DNA of 64,000 nt, taken from Escherichia coli (GTDB lineage: Bacteria > Pseudomonadota > Gammaproteobacteria > Enterobacterales > Enterobacteriaceae). The stretch lies in NCBI RefSeq assembly GCF_003334255.1, contig NZ_QOWU01000020.1; one strand, given 5' to 3'. Below the pieces are notes generated by a model that ran no database searches, was not told where the DNA came from, and saw only the letters and a program-made list of their open reading frames with translations. A program made the translations under genes and the position numbers. Within the stretch, counting starts at the first letter, position 1; every line of letters starts with the position of its first letter. Below are positions 1 through 38,690 of this stretch, piece by piece.

Positions 1-76
1 ACGCGAGGCATCGTCTTAACGAGGCACCGAGGCGTCGCATTCTTCAGATGGTTCAACCCTTAAGTTAGCGCTTATG
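1..76. mobile_element. Terminal segment of an IS186-like (IS4 family) insertion sequence; the element continues to the left of the window
   Basis: Bases 54-76 (CAACCCTTAAGTTAGCGCTTATG) match my recollection of the 23-bp IS186 terminal inverted repeat (not database-checked). Bases 1-75 are unrelated to the expected alkB 3' end and yojI start. Flank at 77-89 (GGATGAAACCCC) resembles the G-run/N6/C-run IS186 hotspot. A + strand ORF runs in from the left edge and stops at 63-65. Confidence 0.55.
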
Positions 77-669
77 GGATGAAACCCCGCTTTCAACGGT
101 TGAATACCGTGATAAAACAGCCGCGATTCACCGCCCCATACCACCACATCGCCATGTTCCAACAACAAACGTTTGAGCGGATCATTTCGTTTCAGGCCGC
201 CAAATTGAAAAATCGCGGGTAAGCCCAGAGAAACAGAAACAATTGGCGCGCGCAGATCCGGTTCGTCTTTATCCTGATGCAGCGACAGTTTCGCGCCAGG
301 AGCGTAGCGGTTGATAAGACAAGCATCTGGCTGGAAATCTGGATAGCCCGCCGCCGTAGCCGCACGTTGACATAAATTATGAAAACTCTGTGGCATGGCG
401 GGCCACGGTTTATTTGTTTGCGGATCAATGGGCGAATAGAGATAACCTTGCCGATGGGTCGTCCAGCCCAGATGCCCACAGTTGGTCATCGCCACCGACA
501 TGGTATATCCCCCGGGGGTGACCATCTGGCGAAACGGCGACTGGCTGGCAACGTCATTAATATCGCGGATCAGTTGCTCCGCAGCGTTAAAAGCAAAACG
601 CCGTAAAATTACCGCACCAGCCGCCAGTGGCTCTTGCCACGGTTCAGCATCGGCAAACAGATCCAACAT
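16..669 (-). CDS. alkB: AlkB alkylated-DNA dioxygenase, variant allele: residues 1-198 are native, the last 19 aa are read from the foreign sequence at 16-75 (probably inactive)
   Basis: 217-aa ORF identical in register to K-12 AlkB through H197-P198 (N120, Y122, H131, D133, H187 present). After P198 the native tail LTIDCRYNLTFRQAGKKE is replaced by ISANLRVEPSEECDASVPR, so R204, N206 and R210 are missing. Confidence 0.85.
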   Translation of the reverse strand: MLDLFADAEPWQEPLAAGAVILRRFAFNAAEQLIRDINDVASQSPFRQMVTPGGYTMSVAMTNCGHLGWTTHRQGYLYSPIDPQTNKPWPAMPQSFHNLCQRAATAAGYPDFQPDACLINRYAPGAKLSLHQDKDEPDLRAPIVSVSLGLPAIFQFGGLKRNDPLKRLLLEHGDVVVWGGESRLFYHGIQPLKAGFHPISANLRVEPSEECDASVPR

Positions 670-1733
670 TACCTCTCCTCATTTTCAGCTTCGCGGCGCA
701 GCAGTTGCGCTTTACGCGACACGCCCCAGCGGTAACCGGAAAGTGTGCCATCACCACGGACCACCCGATGACAGGGTATTATGATAGCCAGCTTGTTGGC
801 GGCACAGGCGCTGGCAACGGCCCGTACCGCTTTCGGTTTGCCGATGGCGTTAGCCAGTTGCTGATAACTGACGGTTTCACCGCAAGGTATCGTGCGCAGT
901 GCCTGCCAGACTTGTTGCTGAAAAGCAGTGCCGCGAATGTCCAGCGGTAACGTCAGCGGCGTATCGCGTTGATTGAGGCTGGCGATCACTTCACGCACAT
1001 GTTGCTGAAACATCAGATCGGCAGGCGCGTTGTCGGCAGCGGGAAACATCTGCTGCAACTCGCTGATTAGTGTCGCGTCATCATCGCCCAGCAATATCGC
1101 GCAAATCCCCCGCTCGCTTTCTGCCACCAGGCAACGACCCAGCTCACAATCAGCCAGCGCGTAACGCACCGCCAGATTTTCGCCACCGTGACGGAATTGT
1201 TTAGCCGTCATGCCCAGCGTTTCGTCAGCTTTGCGATAGTAACTGCTGCTGTCGGGGAATCCGGCGTTAAGAATAGACGTCGTCACGCTCTCCCCTTTCG
1301 CCAGCGATTCGCGCAAACGGCGAGCGCGCCAGGCCTGTTGCCAGGCTTTAGGCGTCATTCCGGTAGTCGCTTTAAACAACCGATGTAGATGAAATGGACT
1401 CATCGCCACCTGGTCGGCTAAGGCTTCCAGCGTTACAGGCGTTTCCTGTTCCAGCAGTCGACACGCGTGGGTGATTTTATCCAACCGATGTTGCTGGGCA
1501 TTGGCTTTTTCTGGCTGACAACGTTTGCAGGGGCGAAAGCCAGCGGCGAGTGCCTCGCTGGCATTTGCGTAGAAGGAGACGTTTTCCCGCAAAGCATGTC
1601 TGGCGCGGCAAGACGGACGGCAAAAGATGCCTGTGGTACGCACGGCGAAAACGAATTCGCCGTCGGCATTCGGGTCGCGGGCTAAGACAGATTGCCAGCG
1701 TTGATCGTCAGTTAAGCATGTGGCTTTTTTCAT
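669..1733 (-). CDS. ada: Ada, O6-methylguanine-DNA methyltransferase and transcriptional regulator of the adaptive response
   Basis: 354-aa ORF matching Ada; its stop overlaps the alkB start (TAATG), the known ada-alkB operon arrangement. Confidence 0.95.
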   Translation of the reverse strand: MKKATCLTDDQRWQSVLARDPNADGEFVFAVRTTGIFCRPSCRARHALRENVSFYANASEALAAGFRPCKRCQPEKANAQQHRLDKITHACRLLEQETPVTLEALADQVAMSPFHLHRLFKATTGMTPKAWQQAWRARRLRESLAKGESVTTSILNAGFPDSSSYYRKADETLGMTAKQFRHGGENLAVRYALADCELGRCLVAESERGICAILLGDDDATLISELQQMFPAADNAPADLMFQQHVREVIASLNQRDTPLTLPLDIRGTAFQQQVWQALRTIPCGETVSYQQLANAIGKPKAVRAVASACAANKLAIIIPCHRVVRGDGTLSGYRWGVSRKAQLLRREAENEER

Positions 1734-1806
1734 AATCAGCTCCCTGGTTAAGGATAGCCTTTAGGCTGCCCGGTCACCATCACGCAAAAACCAACAATCT
1801 TGCGCT

Positions 1807-2862
1807 TTAATTTTTTTCGCTGACAAGGAAGCTTTTAAACTGTGGTGACATCCAGGTTTTAAAGCTATCGCCTTCTTTGGTGATCATATAAACCGCCAGC
1901 CCTTCCCGGCGAACAACCTCTTTAGCTTTCTCCGGCCCGAGTACCATCAAGCCAGTATCCCAGGCATCGGCTTCCAGCGCCGTCGGAGCAATCACCGTCA
2001 CGGATACCAGATTGTGTTCGATGGGACGCCCGGTTTGCGGATCGATAACATGGGAAAGACGTTTGCCGTCCAGTTCGTAATAGTTACGGTAGCTGCCAGA
2101 GGTGCTAATCCCATGACCGTTGATATCCACCACAGCCTGAACCGCGTTTTCTTTATCGGTTGGTTTTTGAATCGCTACCCGCCACGGCAGGCCTTCACCG
2201 TTCATACCACGGCTGTTCAGCGCGCCGCCCACCGACACCAGATAGCGGGAAATCCCTTCCTGCTCCATCAAGCGTGCCAAATGATCGGCCGCATAGCCTT
2301 CGCCGACGGTGGAGAGATCGACATATAAATCCGGCAGGTCTTTTTGCAGATATTGCTGATGCGACTGATTGATGACCGTCAGGTGCTGTAAGCCGGTTTT
2401 GGCTTTCATCGCATCGATCTGTTCCTGGCTCGGAATTTGAACCGGCTGTTGTTCCGGGCCAAAGCCCCACAGATTCACCAGCGGCCCGACGGTTATATCC
2501 ATCGCGCCATCGGTCTTCGCGCCAATGCGCAGCGAGGTGGTGACGATATCGGCCATCGCTTCACTTACCGGCCACGGCGATAAACTTTGCGAGTCGTTAA
2601 AGCGCATCAGCGCGGAATCTTTTTTATAGGTCGAAAGCAGCTGATCGTCGGCGTCCAGTTGGGTCTGAATCTTTTCTTTAAGTTCGGCGCTGCGTTTGGC
2701 GTCAATGCCCGGGATGCTGGCACGCCAGAAGGTACCCATAGTTTTGCCTTCAAGAACGGTAACTTCAGTAGCGTGGGTTTTGGCGGGTTGTGGTTTTTGA
2801 TCGCAACCAACAAAGAAGAGCGCGGCAGCCAGCAGTGCCACGCGGGTAAAGCTTATTTCCAT
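1807..2862 (-). CDS. apbE: FAD:protein FMN transferase (ApbE)
   Basis: 351-aa ORF with lipoprotein-type signal peptide (LFFVGC); matches ApbE. Confidence 0.93.
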   Translation of the reverse strand: MEISFTRVALLAAALFFVGCDQKPQPAKTHATEVTVLEGKTMGTFWRASIPGIDAKRSAELKEKIQTQLDADDQLLSTYKKDSALMRFNDSQSLSPWPVSEAMADIVTTSLRIGAKTDGAMDITVGPLVNLWGFGPEQQPVQIPSQEQIDAMKAKTGLQHLTVINQSHQQYLQKDLPDLYVDLSTVGEGYAADHLARLMEQEGISRYLVSVGGALNSRGMNGEGLPWRVAIQKPTDKENAVQAVVDINGHGISTSGSYRNYYELDGKRLSHVIDPQTGRPIEHNLVSVTVIAPTALEADAWDTGLMVLGPEKAKEVVRREGLAVYMITKEGDSFKTWMSPQFKSFLVSEKN

Positions 2863-2930
2863 ACGTGATTATCCTCATGCGAACGGTCGCAAGAGTACAC
2901 CAAAAAACTGAGTTTGTACGCTGAAAACAA

Positions 2931-2958
2931 TGAAAAAAGGGCCCGCAGGCCCTTTGTT
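2931..2958 (-). terminator. Rho-independent terminator downstream of ompC
   Basis: GC hairpin GGGCC-CGCA-GGCCC at 2939-2952, followed on the minus strand by a U-tract (A-run 2932-2938 on + strand). Confidence 0.7.
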
Positions 2959-2973
2959 CGATATCAATCGAGA

Positions 2974-4411
<1,438 letters not shown>

Positions 4412-4504
4412 GCTATCATCATTAACTTTATTTATTACCGTCATTCATTTCTGAATGTCTGTTTACCCCTATTTCAACCGGATGCCTCGCATTCGGTTTT
4501 TTTT
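4412..4504 (+). ncRNA. micF: MicF antisense sRNA (represses ompF translation)
   Basis: GCTATCATCATTAACTTTATTTATTACCGTCATTCATTTCTGAATGTCTGTTTACCCCTATTTCAACCGGATGCCTCGCATTCGG plus a T-run; matches micF including its intrinsic terminator. Confidence 0.9.
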
Positions 4505-4815
4505 ACCCTTCTTTACACACTTTTCATTATTCTGTGCTACCACAGAAAAACTATAACGCTTGTTAACTATTTCACAAATAATTAACATCCGCATAATTTC
4601 CAGCAATCTTTGTTTATTTGCAATTATTTTTGTTGGGCTTTTTGTAGGTTATTTGTACAGCAAAATGGCGCTTGTACATCTATTTCCCCCAATGCAGGAT
4701 GATAAATATCACGGGAGAATAGAGAATCATCAATCAGGTAAGAGTCTGGAATTTCACACTGTACCCTTTATACTGCCCTATCACTTCGCGAAGTTTTAAC
4801 AGGTCATAAACACGA

Positions 4816-8158: not shown

Positions 8159-8354
<196 letters not shown>

Positions 8355-8359
<5 letters not shown>

Positions 8360-11370: not shown

Positions 11371-13197
11371 ATGCATTATATGAAGTGGATTTATCCACGC
11401 CGCTTACGCAATCAAATGATCCTGATGGCAATCCTGATGGTCATTGTCCCAACGCTTACTATTGGTTATATCGTAGAAACGGAAGGACGTTCAGCAGTCT
11501 TATCTGAAAAAGAGAAAAAACTTTCTGCCGTGGTCAACCTGCTTAATCAGGCACTAGGCGATCGCTATGATCTCTACATCGACTTACCACGTGAGGAGCG
11601 TATCCGCGCATTAAATGCAGAACTTGCCCCCATTACCGAAAATATCACTCACGCCTTCCCTGGCATCGGTGCTGGTTATTACAACAAAATGCTGGATGCG
11701 ATAATCACCTACGCGCCTTCAGCGCTATATCAGAATAATGTCGGCGTTACCATTGCCGCAGATCACCCTGGTCGCGAAGTGATGCGTACAAATACCCCTT
11801 TAGTTTATTCAGGCAGGCAGGTGCGCGGCGATATTTTGAATTCAATGCTCCCCATTGAGCGTAATGGTGAAATCCTCGGCTATATCTGGGCCAATGAATT
11901 AACCGAAGATATTCGCCGCCAGGCCTGGAAAATGGATGTGAGGATTATCATTGTGCTCACCGCTGGTTTGCTGATAAGCCTGCTGTTGATTGTCCTTTTC
12001 TCCCGTCGCCTGAGCGCCAATATTGATATCATCACCGATGGCCTCTCGACTCTGGCACAAAATATTCCCACTCGATTACCACAATTGCCCGGTGAAATGG
12101 GGCAAATCAGTCAGAGTGTTAATAACCTCGCCCAGGCACTGCGTGAAACGCGGACACTTAACGATCTGATTATTGAAAACGCTGCCGATGGCGTCATTGC
12201 CATTGACCGCCAGGGTGATGTAACCACCATGAACCCAGCAGCAGAAGTTATCACTGGCTATCAACGCCATGAACTGGTAGGGCAGCCTTACTCCATGTTG
12301 TTCGACAATACTCAGTTCTACAGTCCAGTACTGGATACGCTGGAACATGGCACCGAACATGTGGCGCTGGAGATCAGTTTTCCAGGTCGTGACCGCACCA
12401 TTGAACTCAGTGTCACTACCAGTCGTATTCATAACACGCACGGTGAAATGATAGGTGCTTTGGTGATTTTCTCTGATTTAACTGCCCGCAAAGAAACCCA
12501 GCGCCGCATGGCGCAAGCAGAACGCCTCGCCACACTGGGTGAGCTGATGGCTGGCGTCGCGCATGAAGTACGTAATCCGTTAACGGCTATTCGTGGTTAT
12601 GTACAGATCTTGCGCCAACAAACCAGTGACCCAATACATCAGGAATATCTGTCCGTAGTACTCAAAGAAATCGATTCAATTAACAAAGTTATTCAGCAAT
12701 TGCTCGAATTTTCACGTCCACGCCACAGTCAATGGCAACAAGTCAGCCTCAATGCATTGGTTGAAGAAACTCTGGTACTGGTACAAACCGCCGGCGTACA
12801 AGCGCGGGTCGACTTCATAAGCGAACTGGATAATGAATTAAGCCCGATTAACGCCGATCGTGAACTGCTCAAACAGGTACTACTGAATATCCTGATCAAT
12901 GCCGTCCAGGCTATCAGCGCACGAGGGAAAATTCGCATTCAAACCTGGCAATACAGCGACTCACAACAGGCCATTTCGATAGAGGACAACGGCTGTGGCA
13001 TTGATCTCTCGCTGCAAAAAAAGATCTTCGATCCCTTTTTCACCACCAAAGCCTCAGGAACCGGGCTTGGTCTGGCGTTAAGTCAACGCATCATTAATGC
13101 CCATCAGGGTGATATTCGCGTCGCCAGTTTGCCGGGCTACGGCGCAACCTTCACGCTTATTTTACCGATCAACCCGCAGGGAAATCAGACTGTATGA
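11371..13197 (+). CDS. atoS: AtoS sensor histidine kinase
   Basis: 608-aa protein starting MHYMKWIYPRRL with H-box AHEVRNPL; the ORF-track start is 4 codons upstream. Confidence 0.93.
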   Translation: MHYMKWIYPRRLRNQMILMAILMVIVPTLTIGYIVETEGRSAVLSEKEKKLSAVVNLLNQALGDRYDLYIDLPREERIRALNAELAPITENITHAFPGIGAGYYNKMLDAIITYAPSALYQNNVGVTIAADHPGREVMRTNTPLVYSGRQVRGDILNSMLPIERNGEILGYIWANELTEDIRRQAWKMDVRIIIVLTAGLLISLLLIVLFSRRLSANIDIITDGLSTLAQNIPTRLPQLPGEMGQISQSVNNLAQALRETRTLNDLIIENAADGVIAIDRQGDVTTMNPAAEVITGYQRHELVGQPYSMLFDNTQFYSPVLDTLEHGTEHVALEISFPGRDRTIELSVTTSRIHNTHGEMIGALVIFSDLTARKETQRRMAQAERLATLGELMAGVAHEVRNPLTAIRGYVQILRQQTSDPIHQEYLSVVLKEIDSINKVIQQLLEFSRPRHSQWQQVSLNALVEETLVLVQTAGVQARVDFISELDNELSPINADRELLKQVLLNILINAVQAISARGKIRIQTWQYSDSQQAISIEDNGCGIDLSLQKKIFDPFFTTKASGTGLGLALSQRIINAHQGDIRVASLPGYGATFTLILPINPQGNQTV

Positions 13198-14579
13198 CTG
13201 CTATTAATCGCATCCTTATTGTGGATGATGAAGATAATGTTCGCCGTATGCTGAGCACCGCTTTTGCACTACAAGGATTCGAAACACATTGTGCGAACAA
13301 CGGACGCACAGCATTACACCTGTTTGCCGATATTCACCCTGATGTGGTGTTGATGGATATCCGCATGCCAGAGATGGACGGCATCAAGGCACTAAAGGAG
13401 ATGCGCAGCCATGAGACCCGGACACCCGTTATTCTGATGACGGCCTATGCGGAAGTGGAAACCGCCGTCGAAGCGCTACGCTGCGGAGCCTTCGACTATG
13501 TTATTAAACCGTTTGATCTCGATGAGTTGAATTTAATCGTTCAGCGCGCTTTACAACTCCAGTCAATGAAAAAAGAGATCCGTCATCTGCACCAGGCACT
13601 GAGCACCAGCTGGCAATGGGGGCACATTCTCACCAACAGCCCGGCGATGATGGACATCTGCAAAGACACCGCCAAAATTGCCCTTTCTCAGGCCAGCGTC
13701 TTGATTAGCGGTGAAAGCGGCACCGGGAAAGAGTTGATTGCCAGAGCGATTCACTACAATTCGCGGCGGGCAAAGGGGCCGTTCATTAAAGTCAACTGCG
13801 CGGCGCTGCCGGAATCGTTGCTCGAAAGTGAACTGTTTGGTCATGAAAAAGGTGCATTTACTGGTGCACAAACCTTGCGTCAGGGATTATTTGAACGAGC
13901 CAACGAAGGTACTCTGCTCCTCGACGAAATTGGCGAAATGCCGCTGGTACTACAAGCCAAATTACTACGCATTCTACAGGAACGGGAATTTGAACGGATT
14001 GGCGGCCATCAGACCATAAAAGTTGATATCCGCATCATTGCTGCCACCAACCGCGACTTGCAGGCAATGGTAAAAGAAGGCACCTTCCGTGAAGATCTCT
14101 TTTATCGCCTTAACGTTATTCATTTAATACTGCCGCCTCTGCGTGATCGCCTGGAAGATATTTCCCTGTTAGCTAATCACTTTTTGCAAAAATTCAGTAG
14201 TGAGAATCAGCGCGATATTATCGACATCGATCCGATGGCAATGTCACTGCTTACCGCCTGGTCATGGCCGGGAAATATTCGAGAGCTTTCCAACGTTATT
14301 GAACGCGCCGTCGTGATGAATTCAGGCCCGATCATTTTTTCTGAGGATCTTCCGCCACAGATTCGTCAGCCAGTCTGTAATGCTGGCGAGGTAAAAACAG
14401 CCCCTGTCGGTGAGCGTAATTTAAAAGAGGAAATTAAACGCGTCGAAAAACGCATCATTATGGAAGTGCTGGAACAACAAGAAGGAAACCGAACCCGCAC
14501 TGCTTTAATGCTGGGCATCAGTCGCCGTGCATTGATGTATAAACTCCAGGAATACGGTATCGATCCGGCGGATGTATAA
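13194..14579 (+). CDS. atoC: AtoC sigma54-dependent response regulator (NtrC family)
   Basis: 461-aa ORF with receiver domain, AAA+ motifs (GESGTGKE, GAFTGA) and C-terminal HTH; overlaps atoS stop by 4 nt. Confidence 0.95.
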   Translation: MTAINRILIVDDEDNVRRMLSTAFALQGFETHCANNGRTALHLFADIHPDVVLMDIRMPEMDGIKALKEMRSHETRTPVILMTAYAEVETAVEALRCGAFDYVIKPFDLDELNLIVQRALQLQSMKKEIRHLHQALSTSWQWGHILTNSPAMMDICKDTAKIALSQASVLISGESGTGKELIARAIHYNSRRAKGPFIKVNCAALPESLLESELFGHEKGAFTGAQTLRQGLFERANEGTLLLDEIGEMPLVLQAKLLRILQEREFERIGGHQTIKVDIRIIAATNRDLQAMVKEGTFREDLFYRLNVIHLILPPLRDRLEDISLLANHFLQKFSSENQRDIIDIDPMAMSLLTAWSWPGNIRELSNVIERAVVMNSGPIIFSEDLPPQIRQPVCNAGEVKTAPVGERNLKEEIKRVEKRIIMEVLEQQEGNRTRTALMLGISRRALMYKLQEYGIDPADV

Positions 14580-21125: not shown

Positions 21126-28020
<6,895 letters not shown>

Positions 28021-28120: not shown

Positions 28121-30748
28121 TTATTCTTCTTCTGGCTCGTCGTCAACGTCCACTTCCGGAGCGATTTCATCGTCCCCTTCCGCGGCACTGCCGTCGATGG
28201 TATCCAGATCTTCCTCGTCAACCGGTTCAGCAACACGTTGCAGACCCACTACGTTTTCATCTTCCGCAGTACGGATGAGGATCACGCCCTGGGTGTTACG
28301 GCCCACGATGCTGATTTCCGAAACGCGAGTACGTACCAGCGTACCGGCATCGGTGATCATCATGATCTGGTCGCAGTCATCTACCTGTACCGCGCCAACA
28401 ACTAAACCGTTACGTTCGGTAACCTTGATGGAGATAACCCCTTTCGTCGCACGCGACTTGGTTGGGTATTCCGCCACTGCGGTACGTTTACCGTAACCGT
28501 TTTGCGTTGCGGTGAGGATTGCGCCATCGCCACGAGGCACGATCAGAGAGACGACTTTATCGCCTTCACCTAAGCGAATACCGCGAACACCGGTGGTGTT
28601 GCAGCCCATCGCACGGACAGAAGACTCTTTAAAGCGCACCACTTTACCTTCAGCGGAGAACAGCATTACTTCGTCTTCGCCGCTGGTCAGGTCAACGCCG
28701 ATCAGCTCATCGCCGTCAACCAGTTTGATCGCCACTTTACCGGCGGTACGCAGACGGTTGAACTCGGTGAGGACAGTTTTCTTCACGGTACCGTTAGCGG
28801 TCGCCATGAAGACTTTCACGCCTTCTTCAAACTCGGTCACTGGCAGGATCGCAGTGATACGTTCGTCCTGCTCCAGCGGCAGCAGGTTGACGATCGGACG
28901 ACCGCGCGCGCCACGAGTGGCTTCCGGCAACTGATAAACTTTCATCGAATAGACGCGACCACGGCTGGAGAAGCACAGAATATGGTCGTGAGTGTTCGCC
29001 ACCAGCAGTCGGTCGATAAAGTCTTCTTCTTTAATACGTGCGGCAGATTTACCTTTCCCGCCACGACGCTGCGCTTCGTATTCAGAAAGCGGCTGATACT
29101 TAACGTAGCCCTGGTGAGAGAGCGTCACGACCACATCTTCCTGGGTGATCAGATCTTCCAGGTTGATGTCTGCGCTGTTGGCGGTGATTTCAGTACGACG
29201 TTTGTCACCGAACTGTTCACGAACCAGCTCCAGCTCTTCACGGATCACTTCCATCAGACGATCGGCGCTACCAAGAATACGCAACAGTTCCGCGATCTGA
29301 TCCAGCAGCTCTTTGTATTCGTCGAGCAGTTTTTCGTGCTCAAGACCGGTCAGTTTCTGCAAACGCAGATCCAGAATCGCCTGAGCTTGCTGTTCGGTCA
29401 GGTAGTACAGACCATCACGCACGCCGAACTCTGGCTCCAGCCATTCCGGACGCGCAGCATCGTCGCCAGCACGTTCGAGCATCGCGGCAACGTTGCCCAG
29501 CTGCCACGGATTAGCAACCAGCGCAGTTTTCGCTTCTGCAGGCGTCGGCGCATGACGGATCAGTTCGATGATCGGGTCGATGTTCGCCAGCGCCACGGCT
29601 AATGCTTCAAGGATATGAGCACGATCGCGAGCTTTACGCAGTTCGAAAATAGTACGACGGGTCACCACTTCACGGCGGTGACGAACAAACGCCGCGATGA
29701 TGTCTTTCAGGTTCATGATCTTCGGCTGACCATGGTGCAATGCCACCATGTTGATACCGAAAGAAACCTGCAACTGGGTCTGGGAGTAGAGGTTGTTGAG
29801 CACAACTTCACCGACCGCATCGCGTTTCACTTCAATCACGATGCGCATACCGTCTTTGTCAGACTCGTCACGCAGCGCGCTGATGCCTTCCACGCGTTTT
29901 TCTTTTACCAGTTCCGCAATCTTCTCGATCAGGCGCGCTTTGTTTACCTGATACGGAATTTCGTGGACGATAATGGTTTCACGACCGGTTTTGGCGTCAA
30001 CTTCCACTTCTGCGCGAGCGCGGATATACACCTTGCCGCGACCGGTACGGTAAGCTTCTTCAATACCGCGACGACCGTTAATGATTGCCGCCGTCGGGAA
30101 GTCCGGCCCCGGGATGTGTTCCATCAGCCCTTCAATGCTGATGTCTTCATCATCAATATACGCCAGACAACCGTTGATGACTTCCGTCAGGTTGTGCGGC
30201 GGGATGTTGGTTGCCATACCTACGGCGATACCGGAAGAACCGTTCACCAGCAGGTTAGGAATTTTGGTTGGCATGACGTCCGGAATTTTTTCCGTGCCGT
30301 CATAGTTATCAACGAAATCGACCGTCTCTTTTTCGAGATCGGCCATCAGTTCATGGGCAATTTTCGCCAGACGGATTTCCGTATAACGCATTGCCGCCGC
30401 AGAGTCGCCGTCGATAGAACCGAAGTTACCCTGACCGTCTACCAGCATATAACGCAGCGAGAATGGCTGCGCCATGCGGACGATCGTGTCATAGACCGCC
30501 GAGTCACCATGGGGATGGTATTTACCGATTACGTCACCAACGACACGGGCAGATTTTTTATAGGCTTTGTTCCAGTCATTGCCTAGTACGTTCATGGCGT
30601 AAAGTACGCGACGGTGTACCGGCTTCAGGCCATCTCGGACATCTGGCAGCGCACGGCCAACAATGACCGACATCGCATAATCCAGATAGGAGCTCTTCAG
30701 CTCTTCCTCAATGTTGACCGGTGTAATTTCTCTCGCAAGGTCGCTCAT
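28121..30748 (-). CDS. gyrA: DNA gyrase subunit A, wild-type QRDR
   Basis: 875-aa ORF; [11 protein letters not shown] shows S83 and D87 unmutated; acidic C-terminal tail. Confidence 0.98.

Positions 30749-38484: not shown

Positions 38485-38690
<206 letters not shown>

Follow-up and report, generated by a model that had tools for sequence, protein, structure and literature searches.

The alkB reading frame at the start of this 64-kb stretch of Escherichia coli DNA (the window, meaning the whole stretch that was analysed) raises two linked questions: what has replaced the native end of the gene, and whether the protein that results can still act as a demethylase. The features on which the answers depend are the following.

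1..76, no strand assigned: last 76 bp of IS186, which NCBI calls IS4-like IS421 family; the window starts within the element
54..76, no strand assigned: 23-bp terminal inverted repeat, the reverse complement of CATAAGCGCTAACTTAAGGGTTG
77..86, no strand assigned: one copy of the 10-bp target-site duplication GGATGAAACC, alkB codons 195-198
16..669, minus strand: alkB::IS186 fusion ORF, 217 aa
77-669, together with the IS-derived base 76 as third base of P198: native codons 1-198 of the fusion ORF
19-75, with the stop at 16-18: codons 199-217 of the fusion ORF, read from IS186
669..1733, minus strand: ada, intact, its stop overlapping the alkB start (TAATG) in the native ada-alkB operon arrangement

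The first question has a plain answer. Residues 1-198 of the fusion are identical to E. coli AlkB and divergence sets in after P198 (phmmer against PDB 6y0q, 216 aa), at a junction that reads TTT CAT CC/C ATA AGC, with the slash marking the alkB/IS boundary. DNA homology to K-12 begins at base 77, and from there the window is collinear with the alkB-ada-apbE-ompC-rcsDBC region. The preliminary description of this DNA had read the product as wild-type AlkB through P198, keeping N120, Y122, H131, D133 and H187, followed by 19 residues of inserted sequence in place of 18 native ones, and this reading stands: all five residues lie inside the identical segment, and the native C-terminus LTIDCRYNLTFRQAGKKE (18 aa) has given way to ISANLRVEPSEECDASVPR (19 aa), yielding a protein of 217 aa where the wild type (a 651-bp gene) has 216. 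It had also taken ada to be intact, and the gene indeed runs without an internal stop. Its list of lost residues (R204, N206 and R210) is correct for N206 and R210 but not for R204, since the residues read from the element (I199 S200 A201 N202 L203 R204) happen to place an arginine back at position 204. The first seven residues supplied by the element, ISANLRV, replace native LTIDCRY conservatively; beyond them N206 becomes E, T208 becomes S and R210 becomes E, and a proline is introduced at 207. The "inserted sequence" is foreign DNA, as described there, although its identity as IS186, the recurrence of the site and the inversion in strain VG48B2 discussed below had been missed.

We propose that this exchange very likely abolishes AlkB activity, and that the same holds for the 211-aa product formed when IS186 sits at this site in the opposite orientation, whose fusion tail ISANLRVVVLRLI is likewise without N206, T208 and R210. 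To gauge conservation, wild-type AlkB was searched with phmmer against 1.84 billion cluster representatives (3,953 hits), and 41 near-full-length sequences were compared, consisting of wild-type AlkB and 40 cluster representatives about 40-60% identical. R204 and R210 are present in 41/41, T208 in 39/41, N206 in 38/41 and L207 in 36/41. The metal ligands in the same set score 41/41 (H131), 40/41 (D133) and 40/41 (H187), so that N206, T208 and R210 are conserved comparably to the residues that hold the iron; none of the 41 homologues ends before the second residue past R210. The fusion retains the HxD...H triad (H131, D133, H187), all of it within the native part, and departs from the family-specific C-terminal strand R-x-N-L-T-F-R in having E206, P207, S208 and E210. 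An arginine is found at 204, but it is encoded by IS186 and its presence is coincidental rather than a native retention.

The roles assigned to these residues in the literature are in keeping with this view. R204 is salt-bridged to the C5 carboxylate of 2-oxoglutarate (2OG) (PMC7467159). R210 is the conserved arginine by which the AlkB family is told apart, and it makes contact with succinate, D133 and the oxo group (PMC8508711, PMC3994944). In the human homologue FTO two absolutely conserved arginines are spaced R-x5-R, and R316Q and R322Q each abolish 2OG turnover (PMC2797938). Both the FTO variants and the AlkB fusion thus hit the conserved 2OG-coordinating R-x5-R pair; the FTO variants, however, are single substitutions, whereas in the fusion foreign sequence takes the place of the entire strand beyond P198, and of the pair only the first arginine is present, by accident. 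For E. coli AlkB itself, the literature searched gave no direct mutational data at R204, N206 or R210 (R204A, N206A, R210A). Because N206, T208 and R210 are conserved in 38 to 41 of the 41 sequences, and because the matching FTO R322Q is dead, loss of function is very likely, and an adaptive response with Ada and probably without a working AlkB is the best reading that we infer.

It might be argued instead that the fusion keeps a partial or altered function, in that it folds, binds Fe/2OG weakly, or binds lesions without repairing them. The conservative replacement of LTIDCRY by ISANLRV and the arginine at 204 speak for such residual function, as does the score of 359.5 bits against the NCBIfam AlkB equivalog NF011930 (wild type 380.1, cutoff 267). 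AlphaFold places residues 204-210 of the wild type in the final strand, and AlphaFold2 run with an alignment puts the fusion tail on the same strand, with a pLDDT of 93 over block 201-210 (98 in the wild type); this comparison is driven by the alignment and insensitive to destabilising substitutions, so it is uninformative on stability and carries little weight. Against residual function stand the invariant R210 (41/41) and the near-invariant N206 and T208 (at least 38/41), for which the fusion has E206 and E210 with P207 between, as well as the fact that the homologous FTO R322Q by itself abolishes 2OG turnover. The alkB::IS186 allele of strain SCU-104 (L009, 6038-6673) has decayed further: one SNP, 328 bp away from the junction, creates an extra internal stop, and none of the other alleles among the 11 found in complete genomes is flagged as a pseudogene. 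The extra stop hints, if faintly, at relaxed constraint. We therefore regard retained function as unlikely. A particular form of it, in which the Ada-induced fusion would be a catalytically dead lesion binder, holding methylated single-stranded DNA or Fe/2OG without turnover, seems to us quite improbable. Were it true, the phenotype would differ from that of a clean deletion, for instance in worse MMS sensitivity or altered mutagenesis, and insertion at an IS186 hot spot would generate such a protein again and again in natural strains.

Automated annotation gives little warning of any of this. PGAP calls the fusion an intact "DNA oxidative demethylase AlkB" (WP_021557963.1, with other WP accessions on other haplotypes), because its score lies above the NF011930 cutoff and its length is 217 rather than 216 aa, while the detached 69-nt alkB tail is the part flagged as a pseudogene. 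The truncation is clearer in Pfam PF13532, where the fusion matches no further than model position 181 of 194. Pan-genome surveys, or surveys of resistance and repair genes, would hence score carriers as AlkB-positive, a blind spot that calls for some caution.

The identity of the inserted element is secure. Positions 1-76 of the window match exactly the final 76 bp of an IS186 copy, 1,339 bp long, in E. coli VG48B2, the nearest complete genome, and that copy is itself 100% identical to IS186B of K-12 MG1655. All IS copies examined carry the repeat CATAAGCGCTAACTTAAGGGTTG at each end, and genomes with the opposite orientation match the window only from base 54 onward. In related genomes the elements are 1,338-1,340 bp long and encode a 370-aa DDE transposase (WP_001300563.1, PF01609), only 76 bp of the element being present within the window. 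The draft contigs that carry the fusion protein mostly end 13-92 bp beyond its stop codon, as one would expect where a repeat begins, and a contig end broken by the repeat is probably also the reason that the window opens exactly 76 bp into the element; such an opening would fit the start of a short-read contig with its k-mer overlap.

Why IS186 should land here becomes apparent when the empty site is compared with others. The target at alkB codons 195-199 is GTGGATGAAACCCC (GTGG-ATGAAA-CCCC), which is one mismatch from G4-N6-C4, reportedly the consensus for IS186 at the lon-promoter hot spot. We derived the motif empirically by rebuilding the empty sites of six IS186 copies, among them the following.

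yehM, empty IS186 target: GGGGCGATTTCCCC
hokE, empty IS186 target: GGGGATTACTCCCC
fimA-fimI, empty IS186 target: GGGGTTGCGGCCCC
yqeB, empty IS186 target: GGGGAGTCGAGCCCC
cynR, empty IS186 target: GTGGATGTAGCCCC

The yehM, hokE, fimA, yqeB and cynR targets all fit G4-N6/7-C4. Perfect GGGGN6CCCC sites number 0 in the 64-kb window against 0.7 expected, a figure that conveys the rarity of the motif and does not quantify the strength of a hot spot. The alkB target (window 77-101) and the cynR target are alike well beyond G4-N6-C4 (GTGGATGAAACCCCGCTTTCAACGG and GTGGATGTAGCCCCGCTTTCTCGCAG), and a pmrD IS186 site reads ...CCCCCACTTTCACGG; going by these few sequences, the target preference of IS186 may extend to CCCCGCTTTC beyond the published core. 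Nothing useful emerged from looking for terminators and promoters in the native alkB 3' region.

The insertion is not peculiar to the window. Using a junction query of 76 bp of IS and 84 bp of alkB, with full coverage required, and an equivalent query for the opposite orientation, we located IS186 at precisely this alkB base pair, each time with an identical 10-bp duplication, in 11 of the 5,426 complete E. coli genomes searched (0.2%), six in one orientation and five in the other. In 10 of the 11 the insertion is simple, IS186 being flanked on both sides by GGATGAAACC and followed by the 69-nt alkB tail and yojI. SNPs close to the element, at 19 bp on its left and 111 bp on its right, divide each orientation into two or more haplotypes, and two pairs of genomes combine an identical flanking haplotype with opposite IS orientations. 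Because the flanking SNPs split the haplotypes within each orientation, we infer at least four independent insertions at this base pair, and there may have been up to eight. The exact 217-aa protein is found on 42 public contigs and the 211-aa product of the opposite orientation on 99, and the sources of the carriers include human, pig, seawater and farm.

Such a pattern could be taken to mean that loss of AlkB is selected in some niches, over and above any transposition hot spot, and the number of independent events, their occurrence in unrelated backgrounds and hosts, and the spread of the exact fusion proteins over public contigs would all agree with selection. Every event, however, falls on the identical base pair, with the identical duplication, in a site that follows the IS186 motif, whereas selection would be expected to leave varied lesions (IS186 insertions being the only class of alkB lesion surveyed), and the frequency among complete genomes is just 0.2%. 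We consider selection an improbable explanation of the recurrence. That the junction is an assembly artefact, such as a chimeric contig end at a repeat, has a next to negligible chance of being true and we reject it, for although the window opens inside the element and most drafts with the fusion protein end shortly after its stop, the junction is present in six complete genomes, closed genomes from different laboratories carry the full IS with matching target-site duplications at the same junction, and it also lies within a 3.4-Mb contig (L022).

Of the 11 complete genomes with the insertion, the one in which it is not simple is VG48B2, and there the far side of the alkB IS186 adjoins not the alkB tail but the C-terminal part of yehM (DUF5682) and yehP. 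Approximately 103 kb away lie, in order, yehL, the N-terminal part of yehM, IS186, the alkB tail, yojI and mqo. The two IS186 copies (L001, 2737-4076; L005, 27635-28973) are exact reverse complements and 100% identical, and the target-site duplications have been exchanged between them, with GGCGATTTCC/GGAAATCGCC for yehM and GGATGAAACC/GGTTTCATCC for alkB, the second copy of GGATGAAACC being found at the reciprocal inversion junction. Identical inverted copies with exchanged duplications are the classical signature of IS-flanked inversions, which VG48B2 shares. Since the duplications are exchanged between identical inverted elements, the arrangement reads as two ordinary transpositions and a later homologous recombination event involving the inverted IS186 copies, which inverted about 103 kb. 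The inversion is seen in VG48B2 only, the other 10 complete genomes having the simple insertion, and the window itself starts inside the element.

The window is also not VG48B2. The two are identical over window positions 1-4661, and the Ada of VG48B2 (WP_000710375.1) is the K-12 protein, but 18 SNPs and one indel separate them over 64 kb, and K-12, with 15 SNPs, is about as distant from the window as VG48B2 is. Comparison of these sequences identifies the source as a third K-12-like strain that is neither K-12 nor VG48B2. The gene for the alpha-2-macroglobulin YfaS (21126-25640, minus strand) is intact in the window and has TGG at codon 1338, where K-12 MG1655 has an internal stop; the source is therefore K-12-like but not K-12. 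The atoC gene (13194-14579, plus strand) is intact in the window and frameshifted in VG48B2 by a 1-bp deletion. Rfam places the MicF sRNA upstream of ompC (4411-4504, plus strand), an expected K-12 feature, and three naRNA4 (REP-type) elements, likewise expected in K-12, at 8165-8241, 8279-8355 and 38535-38605 (minus strand). The quinolone-resistance region of gyrA (28121-30748, minus strand) is wild type, with S83 and D87.

We suggest that these observations reflect the following course of events. IS186 transposed into the near-consensus target at alkB codons 195-199, duplicating 10 bp, and the alkB frame now leaves the gene after P198, reads on for 19 codons through the terminal repeat and stops inside the element. 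The 217-aa product is without the native final jelly-roll beta-strand (204-210), which holds 2-oxoglutarate and shapes the active site. Given E, S and E in place of N206, T208 and R210, and a proline at 207, we expect a protein that is catalytically dead and perhaps unstable. Under Ada control the induced cell would make Ada and no working AlkB demethylase, and loss of activity is predicted together with sensitivity to MMS and other SN2 methylating agents. In VG48B2 alone, later recombination with the inverted yehM copy would have inverted about 103 kb. The junction, the identity of the element, the target duplication, the recurrence and the conservation of the lost residues are observed; to the explanation as a whole, in which insertion of IS186 produces a fusion with lost AlkB activity, we assign a probability of roughly 85%.

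Understanding of AlkB and of IS186 is unchanged by these results, whose practical value lies mainly in caution over annotation and in a set of natural strains predicted to be alkB-deficient. As a natural, recurrent and probably null allele, alkB::IS186 makes it possible to ask, with strains that already exist, whether AlkB matters outside the laboratory. With this site a coding region also joins the few listed IS186 hot spots, and the set of targets assembled here may help to refine the motif. A literature search found no paper on IS186 with alkB, and nothing relevant for yojI or yehM. What is new is thus a previously unreported, motif-conforming IS186 hot spot in a coding region; as an event, it is an ordinary IS disruption that belongs mechanistically with lon::IS186 and with laboratory alkB nulls.

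The closest known counterpart is the insertion at the lon promoter of E. coli B, where IS186 reportedly hits one base pair recurrently and in either orientation (SaiSree, Reddy & Gowrishankar 2001, cited in PMC3045373 and PMC3861542). The lon and alkB insertions have in common a recurrent single base pair, both orientations, a target of G-rich, N6 and C-rich blocks, a duplication of about 10 bp, and loss of function of the gene that is hit (the adjacent gene in the case of lon, and as a prediction in that of alkB). They differ in that the alkB target lies in a coding region and carries one mismatch to the motif (GTGG...CCCC), and in that the alkB insertion yields a C-terminal fusion of near wild-type length, whereas the lon insertion disrupts a promoter. 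The second counterpart is the laboratory allele. E. coli alkB nulls are sensitive to SN2 methylating agents and defective in reactivating methylated single-stranded DNA, and the same phenotype would be expected of alkB::IS186, with ada intact and the rest of the adaptive response kept in both. Unlike the laboratory nulls, however, alkB::IS186 is a natural allele, in which 198 native residues, the Fe ligands among them, are still encoded.
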